A stretch of DNA of 64,000 bases, taken from contig CBDFJR010000002.1 of NCBI GenBank assembly GCA_965248535.1, positions 1,760,001 through 1,824,000 of the forward strand. The letters are read 5' to 3'. Shown piece after piece: positions 30,704 to 33,360 of this stretch. Within the stretch, counting starts at the first letter, position 1, and every line of letters starts with the position of its first letter. A program made the position numbers and the translations under genes. The DNA comes from Phormidesmis sp. Its GTDB lineage: Bacteria; Cyanobacteriota; Cyanobacteriia; Leptolyngbyales; Leptolyngbyaceae. The notes under the pieces are model-generated. The model saw only the letters and a list, made by a program, of their open reading frames with translations. It did not search any database and was not told the origin of the DNA.

Positions 30704-32734
30704 GTGTTAGAGCTACCCGCGTCTCGATCGAGTCTGTCTTCTCGCACTACCATTCCTGACCAGCGGTGGCATATTTTTCCGAGTCAGGCAGAGCGGGCAG
30801 AGCAGCTTGCTCAAACCACGAGCCTGTCTCCTTTGTTAACTCAGGTGTTGCTTAATCGCAACATTGAGACACCAGAACAGGTCAAGGTCTATCTCGATCC
30901 TGACTCTCAAGATTTACCGTCACCCCTAGAAGACTTTCCCGATCTGCCCCTCAGCTTAGAGTTGCTGATCAACGCCATTAACCAGCGCCAGCGCATTGCC
31001 ATCTGTGGAGACTATGACGCAGATGGGATGACCAGCACAGCGCTGCTGCTGAGAGCGTTGCGGTGTCTGGGCGCACAGGTCGATTATGCGATTCCCAGCC
31101 GGATGAGTGAAGGCTATGGCATCAACGAGCGGATTGTTGAAGACTTTCATGAAGAAGGGGTTTCGCTGATTCTCACGGTCGATAACGGCATTATGGCCCA
31201 CCAGCCGATCGCTAGAGCACGAGAGCTAGGGCTAGCCGTGATCATCACCGATCACCACGATTTGCCCCCTGTGTTGCCCGATGCCAACGCGATTCTCAAC
31301 CCCAAGCTGATTGCCGAAACGTCGCCCTATCGCACCATGGCGGGGGTGGGGGTGGCCTATGTTTTGGCGCTATCGCTGGCCCAGAGTTTTGACCAAACGC
31401 GAGAGCTTCGCGACAGTTTATTGGAACTGTTTACGCTGGGCACGATCGCCGATCTAGCTCCGCTGTTGGGTGTCAACCGTCGATGGGTCAAACGGGGACT
31501 GCAATTATTGCCAAAGTCTAGACTTGCAGGCGTTCAGGCGTTGATTCAAGTCGCGGGGTTGAGCGGTGAAAAAAATCTCAAGCCCGAAGCGATCGGCTTT
31601 CGGTTAGGGCCGCGCATCAATGCCGTCGGTCGATTGGCCGATCCTCAAATCGTGATCGAACTGCTGATCACTGACGATGAAGGGGTCGCCTTAGAGCAGG
31701 CAATGAAGTGTGAGCAAATTAATAAACAGCGTCAGCAGCTTTGCGAACAGATTGAGCAATCGGCGATCGCGGCTTATGAACAAGGCTCGCTAGATGCTCA
31801 AGACGATCGGGTGCTGCTGCTCGTGCAACCGGGCTGGCATCATGGCGTAATCGGCATTGTGGCCTCTCGGCTGGTCGAGCGCTATGGGGTGCCTGTGTTT
31901 ATCGCCACCTATGAAGACGAAGCCCAGCAGCACATTCGCGGTTCGGCCCGCAGCATTCCTGAGTTTCACGTTTTTGAGGCCCTAGAGTTTTGTAAAGATC
32001 TGATGCTCAAATGCGGGGGGCACAAAGCAGCAGGCGGATTCTCGTTTGAGGCCAGTCAGCTAGAGGCGATCCGATCGCGTCTTTGCACCTTTGCCCACCA
32101 GTCTTTAAAACCCGAACACCTCAAGCCGCTGGTCACAGTGGATGCCCAAGCCGATCTGAATCAGATTGACCTCAGCTTCTATGCTCAAATGGATGCCCTT
32201 CACCCCTGCGGCATGGAAAATCCCGATCCGGTGTTTTGGACTCCGAATGTCCGCATTAGTGACCAAAAACTGATCGGCAAAGGACACCTCAAACTAATGG
32301 TGTGCCAAGAAGATTTAGCCGCCGATCGGCTTGTAGCTAGTCAAAAAATGACCGCGATCGCGTGGCGTTGGGGCGAATATTATCCCTTACCCAAGCATCT
32401 AGACATTGCCTATCGCGTCAGAACTAATGAATGGAACGGCGAGGTTTCGATGCAGCTAGAGCTTGTGGGGGTCAGGCTGCCTGCTCAAGCGACAAATTCT
32501 GGGGTTGAGTTTTCCCATAGTCAACGCCAATATACCTGCGTGATTTTAGAGCGAGACGGCAGCAAAGAACTGAGAATTCGCAATTTTAAAGGCGAAGTTC
32601 TAGCCATTCAAAAAGGTCAAAAAATCGGAACGCTGGGCAAGACTCCGCAGACGGTCAAAGAGATAGACGTTTCTCAACCGCAGTTTTATCACTTGATCAA
32701 AGCGGCGATGCGAGCACTGGGATTAGGAGAATAG
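30704..32734 (+). CDS. recJ: Single-stranded-DNA-specific exonuclease RecJ
   Basis: GDYDADG, TVDNG, TDHH (DHH), PRINAVGRL, GGHKAAGG. Confidence 0.96.
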   Translation: MLELPASRSSLSSRTTIPDQRWHIFPSQAERAEQLAQTTSLSPLLTQVLLNRNIETPEQVKVYLDPDSQDLPSPLEDFPDLPLSLELLINAINQRQRIAICGDYDADGMTSTALLLRALRCLGAQVDYAIPSRMSEGYGINERIVEDFHEEGVSLILTVDNGIMAHQPIARARELGLAVIITDHHDLPPVLPDANAILNPKLIAETSPYRTMAGVGVAYVLALSLAQSFDQTRELRDSLLELFTLGTIADLAPLLGVNRRWVKRGLQLLPKSRLAGVQALIQVAGLSGEKNLKPEAIGFRLGPRINAVGRLADPQIVIELLITDDEGVALEQAMKCEQINKQRQQLCEQIEQSAIAAYEQGSLDAQDDRVLLLVQPGWHHGVIGIVASRLVERYGVPVFIATYEDEAQQHIRGSARSIPEFHVFEALEFCKDLMLKCGGHKAAGGFSFEASQLEAIRSRLCTFAHQSLKPEHLKPLVTVDAQADLNQIDLSFYAQMDALHPCGMENPDPVFWTPNVRISDQKLIGKGHLKLMVCQEDLAADRLVASQKMTAIAWRWGEYYPLPKHLDIAYRVRTNEWNGEVSMQLELVGVRLPAQATNSGVEFSHSQRQYTCVILERDGSKELRIRNFKGEVLAIQKGQKIGTLGKTPQTVKEIDVSQPQFYHLIKAAMRALGLGE

Positions 32735-32739
32735 TTGGC

Positions 32740-32880
32740 TTGACACTCCCACGGCTCCGCAAAGCTAAAGCCGTGGGATTCTTGGTTCAATGAAACCACT
32801 TAACCTAGAGTCCTTGCGTCATCTAGACCAGAGGTGGGATTCTCCCCAAGCGTTAATTCGGGTATGCCCTACCCTATTTG
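32740..32880 (-). ncRNA. Putative TnpB omegaRNA (reRNA) scaffold
   Basis: Spans the tnpB 3' relic through the right-end hairpin, the region known to encode omegaRNA in IS605/IS1341 elements. Boundaries are approximate. Confidence 0.55.
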
Positions 32881-32891
32881 CTTTTCTCTTA

Positions 32892-32931
32892 CTCAGTTGC
32901 CTGCGACGGGAAACCCGTCTTCAGCACTGAG
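32892..32931. repeat. Short palindromic dispersed repeat (GACGGGAAACCCGTC core)
   Basis: CTCAGT-TGCCTGC-GACGGG-AAA-CCCGTC-TTCAGC-ACTGAG nested hairpin, similar to cyanobacterial small dispersed repeats. Confidence 0.55.
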
Positions 32932-33056
32932 CGCCGCAAGTCCTGTTTAAGTTTGAAGCAGATAGGCCTCAAAATGCTGTTTGTCTAGCTCCTCTGAATC
33001 GTTTACCTACTGCGAGGGGGAGTCTAGAAAAATGCAGTAGAACCGCATAGATTCAA

Positions 33057-33068
33057 TTTTCAAGGTTC
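33057..33068 (-). promoter_or_regulatory. BoxA antitermination motif GAACCTTGAAAA
   Basis: Exact match to the cyanobacterial rrn BoxA sequence; about 60 nt downstream of an extended -10-like TGTGATAAT (33136-33128). Confidence 0.6.
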
Positions 33069-33261
33069 AGCGTGTCTCTCGACAGCAAGGTTTTTAAAGT
33101 GGTTGGTTACCTTTCCACAAGTACAAAATTATCACAAATCGGAGTGCGATTTCATGAAGATTGCTGGACTCTGCCTGCTGCCGCAGGCGCGAGAACCCTC
33201 GCTACATCCCACGGCTGAAGCACGATGGGTTTTGCGGGTTCTCAGGCTCTCCCGTTTCTAT

Positions 33262-33290
33262 AAAAAAGCCCGATCGTGCGATCGGGCTTT
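33262..33290. terminator. Bidirectional rho-independent terminator (psb30 / recJ)
   Basis: AAAAAAGCCCGATCG-TG-CGATCGGGCTTT; stem with T tails on both strands. Confidence 0.8.
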
Positions 33291-33360
33291 GGAGCTACTC
33301 TCTCTTAAACTTGATAAAACTTTGTCAGGCTAGCTGAATCTAAACTACAGGCGCTAACTT

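Follow-up and report, generated by a model that had tools for sequence, protein, structure and literature searches.

In a 64,000-nt stretch of the genome of Phormidesmis sp. (in the following called the window; the source genome, G000, comprises 5.03 Mb in five contigs), the genes recJ (DHH, DHHA1 and RecJ_OB domains) and psb30/ycf12 (PSII_Ycf12) are separated by a 521-nt non-autonomous IS200/IS605 element, which occupies positions 33260..32740 on the minus strand, follows a TTAT target and ends with TCAA. The copy in the window contains no open reading frame (ORF) of at least 40 aa on its RNA strand, and the four ORFs of 46-76 aa on the opposite strand match sister copies only. A first inspection of the sequence (hereafter the original prediction) had described the element as a protein-less IS605 derivative whose promoter, BoxA, structured RNA and guide would form a stand-alone omegaRNA expression cassette. 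All features it listed on the minus strand were found where it had placed them (33265..32720). Our analysis leads to a related view: the element is a palindrome-associated transposable element (PATE) without tnpA and tnpB, which combines ends recognisable by a transposase with a self-contained RNA gene. For a role of this RNA as an omegaRNA acting in trans, we estimate a probability of roughly 0.6.

In agreement with the proposed IS605 derivative devoid of tnpA and tnpB, we found three full and two variant copies in the source genome. The three near-identical copies A (window), B (C2:1965370-1965894) and C (C5:1478687-1479213) fix the boundaries of the element, since they are 98-100% alike from directly after TTAT to the end of TCAA and their flanks are unrelated. 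A PATE carries subterminal hairpins on either side, lacks terminal inverted repeats, inserts behind a fixed tetranucleotide with no target duplication and is cut at a constant 3′ site, and the present ends correspond to this: A, B and C all begin after TTAT and finish with TCAA, and a gccgtggg arm is common to the left end (LE) and the right end (RE). The variant copies share only the inner part. In copy D (C2:982472-982827), the left side is decayed and the end reads TCAT, while copy E (C5:~1702650-1703244), located between kaiB and kaiC, carries other end hairpins. The left flanks end with TTTTTTAT (A), GATTTTAT (B), GTTCTTAT (C) and TTGTTTAT (E). In copy C, the loop of the RE hairpin (C5:1479175-1479206) is reverse-complemented relative to A, B and D on the same stem, which looks like a hairpin flip.

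The original prediction had called for a cognate tnpA/tnpB, and a BLAST search identified one in the autonomous IS605 element F (C2:~2302808-2304574). Its LE (C2:2302811-2302907) is 96% identical to that of the element over 97 nt, and its last 62 nt are 76% identical to the right end of the element; F is preceded by CTTAT, with the left flank AGTCTTAT. F encodes a complete Y1 transposase (Y1_Tnp, E 2.4e-36), one of 11 Y1_Tnp matches in the source genome, and a TnpB with OrfB_IS605 and TNB domains (C2:2303362-2304516). The latter matches the ISDra2 TnpB chains with E 6e-40, and in an alignment with the designed TnpB-like nuclease 9yyg, the GxDxG, EDL and DRD motifs coincide.

The omegaRNA (or reRNA) of TnpB proteins of the ISDra2 type overlaps the 3′ codons of tnpB and the RE, ends at TCAA and obtains its guide from the flank. 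Likewise, the right part of the element, here termed the scaffold, overlaps a relic of tnpB 3′ codons and the RE, ends with TCAA and is followed by a flank that could act as a guide. Unlike in the ISDra2 type, no tnpB precedes it, the coding part is reduced to 19 codons, and a dedicated promoter is predicted instead of the tnpB mRNA. We searched the source genome with a covariance model (R1) built from 43 foreign tnpB-less copies, none of them from the source genome, at a threshold of E≤0.01. Among the 20 matches, the five element copies scored 135-140 bits and 11 were located directly 3′ of tnpB zinc-ribbon (TNB) domains, namely those of F (95.3 bits), J (72.1), C5:921274 (70.7), K (63.5), C5:1039273 (51.3) and six weaker ones. 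One further match is the short gene-less element C2:933288-933757. The scaffold can be aligned with the tnpB 3′ ends of F, J (C5:1505272-1506486), K (C2:2252188-2253423), L031 and L064. It shares with F, J and K a GGGCA-loop hairpin, AACGCUUGGGGAGA..CCAAGAAUCCC, the end hairpin and GGGAGUGUCAA. The tnpB-bearing relative L064 (G067), whose TnpB ends with ..GHTGINAWGETDRYLAEETTLDKSIR* (..GHTGINAWGE..), shares 74-77% identity with the ~110 nt that directly precede the end hairpin. These sequence comparisons show that the last ~145 nt are a homologue of a TnpB omegaRNA, and the omegaRNA-like right part of the original prediction is thereby upheld.

The scaffold is preceded by a 5′ leader of ~180 nt, and both parts recur together in other cyanobacteria. 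A DNA search found matches in 12 of 41 relatives and, within the order, in 19/90 genomes and 9/27 genera. Scanning a species collection for the exact 17-base core motif of the leader yielded at least 115 stretches (~69 chance matches computed), and 80 loci were taken with their flanks for neighbourhood analysis. Seventy-two of them are family members, whereas the other eight are non-cyanobacterial chance matches. The family records stem from Nostoc, Anabaena, Dolichospermum, Nodularia, Scytonema, Microcoleus, Pseudanabaena, Phormidesmis, Leptolyngbya, Chamaesiphon and others; carriers include Scytonema hofmanni UTEX 2349 and Microcoleus vaginatus. At 64 of the 72 family loci, BLASTN placed the scaffold 124-300 nt downstream of the leader. 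No TnpB match was obtained within 2 kb at any of the 80 loci (tblastn with the 22 TnpBs of the source genome, E<1e-5). One of the family members, complete and with a scaffold 97.6% identical to the source genome over the BLAST-aligned part, comes from a metagenome-assembled genome labelled uncultured Acetobacteraceae (L129), probably from a mis-binned cyanobacterial contig.

Sixty-eight distinct complete RNAs, taken to begin with the first hairpin and to end with TCAA, were collected. Lengths of 323-329 nt (~325 nt) are the most frequent, and longer members have ~45-nt insertions; the unit extends to 380 nt in the window copy because of a nested repeat. From 46 aligned RNAs, RNAalifold predicted a structure of 73 pairs, which we compared with 500 shuffled alignments and with slid pairing partners. 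Thirty-four pairs are changed on both sides (shuffled 20.4±1.9, reached by 0/500; slid 9-16), 97.3% of the cells are paired (89.3% shuffled, 32-41% slid), and the covariation score is 0.283 (0.135 shuffled, again 0/500; 0.025-0.068 slid). In total, 280 cells are changed on both sides, versus 85.7 in the shuffles. These covariation figures are somewhat inflated by the kinship of the sequences and by the use of one alignment both for deriving the structure and for testing it. The exchanges within individual helices are evident all the same, for example GGGUA/UACCC, GGGUC/GACCC and ACCGAG/CUCGG, or CUAGA/UCUAG, CUGGA/UCCAG and UUAGA/UCUAA. Pairing in the scaffold reaches 95-99.7% in helices 10-13 and 15, where both partners have changed in 18 pairs, and the GTCAA at the right terminus is invariant in all 46 RNAs. 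Numerous G-U pairs agree with the minus strand as the RNA strand. The fold of the window RNA has a z-score of -3.49, and none of 100 shuffles is as stable. In Rfam, leader and scaffold gave nothing at E≤10, only terminator look-alikes were matched at 33253-33343, and nothing reached the gathering score across the whole window.

Given this degree of conservation, it appears very unlikely that the element is an inert, decaying miniature transposon, in which leftovers of an arc-tnpB promoter and of a tnpB 3′ end persist through youth or by virtue of the single-stranded DNA intermediate. The pairing is maintained by members from many genera at only 70-75% identity, and insertions lie between helices or extend them. 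Such decay would be consistent with copy D, which lacks the left end and the canonical TCAA, with the small repeats and the group II intron that landed inside copies, with short relatives consisting of only LE, scaffold and RE, and with a promoter region resembling the divergent arc-tnpB layout, as far as the latter is described in the available part of that report (10.64898/2026.09.24.754181). The promoter itself speaks against a relic: its –10 hexamer keeps TAnnnT despite drift of the inner letters. Short gene-less elements with LE, scaffold and RE, lacking leader and promoter, occur at C2:933288-933757 and at loci of G014, G002 and G056, with at least seven copies in G014.

The original prediction had also postulated a promoter belonging to the element. 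Among 75 distinct upstream sequences of the family, 70 contain a TAnnnT hexamer that begins 18-23 nt ahead of the loop anchor and in 63 cases occupies one of two neighbouring positions; TGn precedes it in 39 of these 70, and the sequence further upstream differs between subfamilies. The T, the A and the final T are retained. A hexamer at a fixed position is what a conserved promoter would look like in sequence, and the predicted start lies approximately where the conserved RNA begins. The RNA is predicted to start with the hairpin GUGG-AAAGGUAAYCAA-CCAC (33118-33099), in which the loop AAGGUAAYCAA is near-invariant and the GUGG/CCAC stem is replaced by CAGG/CCUG or GCGG/CCGC in relatives (compared by eye, without a tool count). 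The loop AGGU pairs with an ACCU 10 nt downstream to form a predicted pseudoknot, which is 95.7% paired and includes one covarying pair (AU 36, GC 4). All three pairs of the following BoxB-like hairpin (helix 3) covary, the middle one being UA in 26 and CG in 17 RNAs, and its GNRA-type loop reads GAGA, GAAA or UAAC among relatives. The BoxA-like stretch (alignment columns 74-90) is unpaired in the consensus fold except for its last bases, which join helix 4. Downstream of it, block 1 forms the helices GAAUC/GAUUC and UCUACUGC/GCAGUAGG; 98.6% of helix 4 and 99.2% of helix 5 is paired, and compensatory change affects five of their pairs.

Directly after the BoxA-like stretch, a hairpin that resembles a terminator competes with one of these helices. 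In principle, it could act as an attenuator: AUGCGGU-UCU-ACUGCAU followed by U residues would stop most transcripts after BoxA, and either the UCUACUGC/GCAGUAGG helix or a Nus-modified polymerase would let some through. The site was called by a consensus scan, the hairpin is exact in 61/68 RNAs, and the fold of the single sequence uses it, while the alignment fold uses the competing helix with three covarying pairs. An unbroken U-run follows it in only 19/68, with UGUUCU in 31, and a subgroup (G043, G074 and G071 among others) lacks the hairpin altogether but keeps the competing helix by compensating changes. We therefore regard attenuation as quite unlikely.

The single-stranded segment resembles the BoxA of the host's own rRNA operons. 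The rRNA BoxA sequences of the source genome are GAACCAAGACAATTGCAT (leader) and GAACCATGAAAACTGCAT (spacer), compared with GAACCTTGAAAATTGAAT in the element. The pattern GAACC[AT][AT]GA[AC]AA[CT]TG[AC]AT occurs ten times in the genome, in three rrn leaders, three internal transcribed spacers and four element copies, a count that is no independent test because the pattern was drawn after seeing both the rRNA and the element sequences. By a rough estimate, the chance of such a BoxA likeness in a 528-nt element is ~2e-4. The 12-mer called an exact BoxA in the original prediction occurs five times in the genome (0.58 expected by chance), in each case within an element copy; in copy D, 5 nt are missing directly after it. 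Across the family, exactness does not hold: the 12-mer is present in 14/68 RNAs only, and GACAA and GAUAA forms are equally common. The stretch thus combines likeness to host rRNA with a location on the transcribed strand, downstream of promoter and hairpin, and a single-stranded state in the predicted fold, and the genome encodes a NusB domain. Based on these sequence features, a genuine NusB/NusE-dependent BoxA remains a tentative assignment, and we lean somewhat against it. The reason originally given for a BoxA on an untranslated RNA, taken from E. coli, does not carry over to a genome without Rho. If the site works, it would rather serve processivity, folding or read-through of the weak terminator-like hairpin at 33048-33032 than protection from Rho. 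The BoxA-like stretch is interrupted by a small palindromic repeat in several copies.

We also considered other origins of the leader. A captured rRNA leader was rejected, since BLAST against the rrn leader and spacer revealed no similarity outside the BoxA stretch. Decayed tnpB coding sequence was likewise dismissed, the single blastx alignment to the TnpB of F being insignificant (E 6.3), and the open frames of relatives gave no Pfam match. The sole relative with additional sequence between leader and scaffold, 2.1 kb in G002:C93, contains a group II intron reverse transcriptase there rather than a tnpB, and ‘leader-only’ matches in G104 proved to be contig ends. This intron (L043, G002:C93:260-2384) carries a 542-aa reverse transcriptase/HNH ORF and sits 3 nt after the BoxA-like 12-mer in the orientation of the RNA, which is a hint at orientation. 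An IStron, i.e. a group I intron combined with IS605 or IS607, was discarded because no Rfam family matched the leader at E≤10.

Table 1. Features of the element and its borders in the window, ordered along the minus strand.
Feature	Position	Strand	Basis
Target / transposon-adjacent motif (T)TTAT	33261..33265	-	Directly 5′ of left end
Left end (LE), subterminal hairpins	33167..33260	-	Motif cccatcg..gccgtggg, recurring in RE hairpin
Promoter-like ATGAAA, 16 nt, GATAAT, upstream TG (alternatively TGaTAATTT)	33128..33155	-	Consensus scan
Extended –10-like TGTGATAAT	33136-33128	-	Read from sequence
Predicted RNA 5′ end, hairpin GUGG..CCAC	33087..33120	-	Family homology begins here
BoxB-like hairpin GUC-GAGA-GAC	33074..33083	-	Helix 3, 95.7% paired
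BoxA-like stretch GAACCTTGAAAATTGAAT	33051..33068	-	18-mer like rRNA BoxA
BoxA 12-mer GAACCTTGAAAA	33068-33057	-	Within BoxA-like stretch
Rest of 5′ leader (block 1)	32970..33050	-	Two nested covarying helices
Terminator-like hairpin AUGCGGU-UCU-ACUGCAU	33048-33032	-	Consensus scan; alternative to block 1 helix
Nested 48-nt palindromic mini-repeat	32887..32934	-	Outside conserved RNA; missing in most relatives
OmegaRNA-type scaffold (block 2)	32748..32883	-	R1, 139.8 bits
Decayed tnpB C-terminal relic ORF RVGHTRINAWGE... ending ..RVGHTRINAWGESHLWSR*	32875-32819	-	19 codons
RE hairpin cccacggc..gccgtggg	32777-32748	-	Within scaffold block
Right terminus AGTGTCAA, TCAA cleavage site	32740..32747 (TCAA 32743-32740)	-	Flanks diverge directly beyond
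Flank GCCAACTATTCTCCTAATCC, would-be guide if transcript crosses RE	32720..32739	-	Position only

Relatives of the RNA are present in transcriptome data from other organisms. Contigs with relatives of both blocks occur in four RNA libraries, each from a different study (freshwater, mat, ice and biocrust), and in all four, sequences at least 85% alike cover 32775-32878 and 32969-33113. In one run, the word depths add up to as much as ~2,480. Both blocks are linked on a single contig of 416 nt, and several contigs continue past TCAA into unrelated sequence. In the RNA collection, the 16-nt flanks are distinct in 67 of 68 cases, so the guides would be insertion-specific rather than fixed.

A small Arc-like ribbon-helix-helix (RHH) gene accompanies part of the family. 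Using a custom hidden Markov model (E<1e-3), we detected it just upstream of the promoter, always on the opposite strand, in 21 of 83 family members; ‘protein-less’ is therefore an apt description of the window copy but not of the family as a whole. The Arc-like proteins diverge to ~30% identity. The ORF is absent from A, B and C, with only ~45 nt left between LE and promoter in the window copy, and is present in copy E, where an in-frame TGA lies upstream of its ATG. Elements with arc and tnpB reside in the source genome as well, as RHH genes divergent from tnpB are located at C5:1856253-1856384 (RHH_1, E 1.2e-6) and, next to a tnpB N-terminal fragment, at C5:1035924-1036121. According to the available portion of a report on Arc-containing IS605 elements, Arc represses their intergenic promoter (Moon, Zedaveinyte, Wiegand, Sternberg 2026, 10.64898/2026.09.24.754181). 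The element family resembles those, as far as that source describes them, in the divergent orientation of the RHH gene relative to the promoter and differs in that this promoter faces a non-coding RNA instead of tnpB, and in the loss of arc from the window copy. The end hairpins of A-C match those of F, while in copy E and relatives, the same core is enclosed by hairpins of at least six other types. Because the layout matches Arc-containing IS605 elements, the simplest history compatible with the sequences starts from an element with arc and tnpB whose tnpB was replaced by the leader; arc would have been lost later, and end hairpins exchanged to fit the resident TnpA.

The distribution of potential TnpB partners bears on whether the RNA needs one at all. 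In the source genome, F, J and K carry scaffolds related to that of the element. Within the order, a TnpB at least 57% identical to that of L064 (E≤1e-110) is encoded by seven of the 12 genomes with leader and scaffold, versus 19 of the 78 others, a comparison for which any statistic is unsafe because of kinship. Of the five carriers lacking such a TnpB, three have tnpB-adjacent R1 matches: G068 and G007 with one and two, respectively, and G056 with one that contains an internal stop. Alternatively, the RNA could act independently of TnpB, by binding another protein such as its own Arc-like one or as an antisense RNA or roadblock against convergent genes, the omegaRNA part being inherited baggage. 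The leader is as conserved and paired as the scaffold and was never linked to tnpB at the 80 loci; moreover, five of the 12 carrier genomes lack the close TnpB clade, the RHH gene lies beside the promoter in a quarter of the members (21/83), and in A, B, C and E the right end borders on a convergent gene at the 3′ end of the latter. The last point follows from the target itself, since TTAT overlaps TAA stops on the other strand. Every helix of the tnpB-linked omegaRNAs is kept in the scaffold with compensatory changes, and the distinct flanks (67/68) provide no fixed target. On balance, a TnpB-independent function seems unlikely.

We therefore return to a PATE with an RNA gene of its own, whose RNA would be used by a resident TnpB. 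The element's own promoter would give rise to a transcript that runs through leader and scaffold, across TCAA and into the flank. A TnpB of the type encoded by F would trim the RNA and bind its 3′ part. After excision of the element by TnpA, the RNA would guide TnpB to the resealed site of TTAT and flank, which for the window copy would be TTAT followed by GCCAACTATTCTCC.., and cleavage there would trigger recombination that restores the copy. This homing logic is published, here being supplied in trans, and the use of PATE omegaRNAs in trans is itself an idea already found in the available part of the same preprint (PMC10055086). The leader, with its pseudoknot, BoxB-like hairpin, single-stranded BoxA-like segment and two helices, may represent an expression and stability module in the style of rRNA operons, which could protect the 5′ end and keep RNA polymerase processive through a structured untranslated RNA.

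Several observations weigh against this proposal. None of the tnpB elements examined contains a counterpart of the leader, whose role is thus guesswork, the BoxA core ACCUUGAnAA, kept in 60/68 RNAs, is broken in the other eight, and the source genome contains no Rho. The central stem of the scaffold differs between the F omegaRNA and the element RNA, so cross-recognition by the F TnpB is not assured. Five of the 12 order genomes with full RNA lack a TnpB at least 57% identical to that of L064, and in two of these five, G002 (0/7) and G043 (0/2), no tnpB-adjacent R1 match exists. The contigs from RNA libraries are a hint of expression and not proof, giving no strand, ends or level and possibly reflecting DNA carry-over; the index contains no RNA run of the source organism, and a fraction of 0.04-0.06 of the words was recovered from the RNA runs listed. 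Finally, some of the pairing could serve the DNA, as the top strand is also transposed in single-stranded form.

The insertion sites of the copies follow from the target sequence. At the window locus, the U-tract of the psb30 terminator supplies the (T)TTAT, and the flank at 32720..32739 is the complement of the final recJ codons including the stop; the antisense action on recJ suggested in the original prediction is merely a positional consequence of the insertion. The convergent genes next to the right end of the other copies are an unnamed ORF (B), a cysteine-desulfurase-like ORF (C) and kaiB (E), again met at their 3′ ends. TTAT reads ATAA on the other strand, where it can include the TAA with which a convergent gene stops. 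The inserted TCAA then reads TTGA and, as seen in B (C2:1965370) and C (C5:1479213), provides an in-frame TGA stop, so insertion hardly alters the protein. Copy E is antisense to kaiB and kaiC, widens their gap to 667 nt (C5:1702600-1703266) and points with its right end toward the 3′ end of kaiB. An empty site, for which the original prediction had proposed to look in relatives, exists in the same-genus genome G002, where only 8 nt lie between the stop of recJ and the same terminator, followed by psb30, without the element; it is not letter-perfect, since the sequence has diverged (~85% identity). This unoccupied site and the different insertion sites in different genomes would fit excision and reinsertion by TnpA, though only indirectly. 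In G007, G006 and G005 (L202-L204), the recJ-psb30 spacer contains unrelated repeats of ~170-220 nt rich in ccctctcc..ggagaggg, and this spacer is a hotspot for small insertions. The 48-nt mini-repeat has an identical copy in opposite orientation at C5:460122-460169 and is found elsewhere in both orientations. At loci of G002, G006 and G007, it occupies two other positions in the RNA; in one instance it interrupts the BoxA-like motif, where CTT is apparently duplicated.

IS200/IS605-type PATEs with omegaRNAs have been noted in Geobacillus stearothermophilus (Meers et al. 2023 preprint, PMC10055086). As described in the accessible part of that preprint, they share with the present element the absence of protein genes, LE and RE like those of a resident IS605, mobilization by TnpA in trans, which is putative here, and an omegaRNA that would have to be used by a TnpB encoded elsewhere. 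In contrast to those PATEs, again within that part of the source, the omegaRNA studied here is preceded by a conserved, structured leader of ~180 nt with a positioned promoter and a BoxB/BoxA-like pair, and the unit is conserved across many cyanobacterial genera with end hairpins swapped to match resident elements. Hence the kind of element is known, and the promoter-leader-scaffold architecture and its breadth are new. A second parallel concerns CRISPR arrays, upstream of which boxA has been proposed to block Rho (Stringer et al. 2020, as cited in the available text of PMC7862264). In both cases a BoxA-like site stands at the start of a long untranslated guide-RNA transcript, a predicted one in the case of the element; unlike the arrays described there, the element is a transposon in a genome without Rho, and Nus binding is putative. 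A ‘70-copy potential DGR1 ncRNA element’ of Nodularia, mentioned in the accessible part of PMC3610870, raised the possibility of a diversity-generating retroelement (DGR) template RNA, which we rejected: the only reverse transcriptase-like ORF within 2 kb of the 80 loci is that of the group II intron, two RVT_1 matches in G106 lie on other contigs, and 11 Nodularia genomes have 1-15 element matches each versus ~70 copies. We found no published description of this cyanobacterial RNA family in the literature, with bioRxiv supplementary tables falling outside the search.

A more far-reaching reading, which is speculative and probably not correct in full, would regard the family as ‘hyperparasitic’ guide-RNA genes. 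These would have dropped the nuclease and would use an rRNA-style, Nus-assisted, strongly transcribed and 5′-protected module to load the resident TnpB with a guide of their own, their ends being repeatedly re-tailored to the resident TnpA, and they would represent a natural step toward free-standing tracrRNA- or CRISPR-type guide-RNA genes. The analysis also defines a widespread structured RNA of ~325 nt, without a match in Rfam, that would otherwise recur unexplained in cyanobacterial transcriptomes. If the RNA is made and used as proposed, a guide RNA can spread as a gene of its own, apart from its nuclease, and can recruit the cell's aids for rRNA transcription. This would bear on the origin of stand-alone guide-RNA genes and would provide TnpB tools for cyanobacteria with a compact, naturally occurring cassette of promoter, leader and scaffold.

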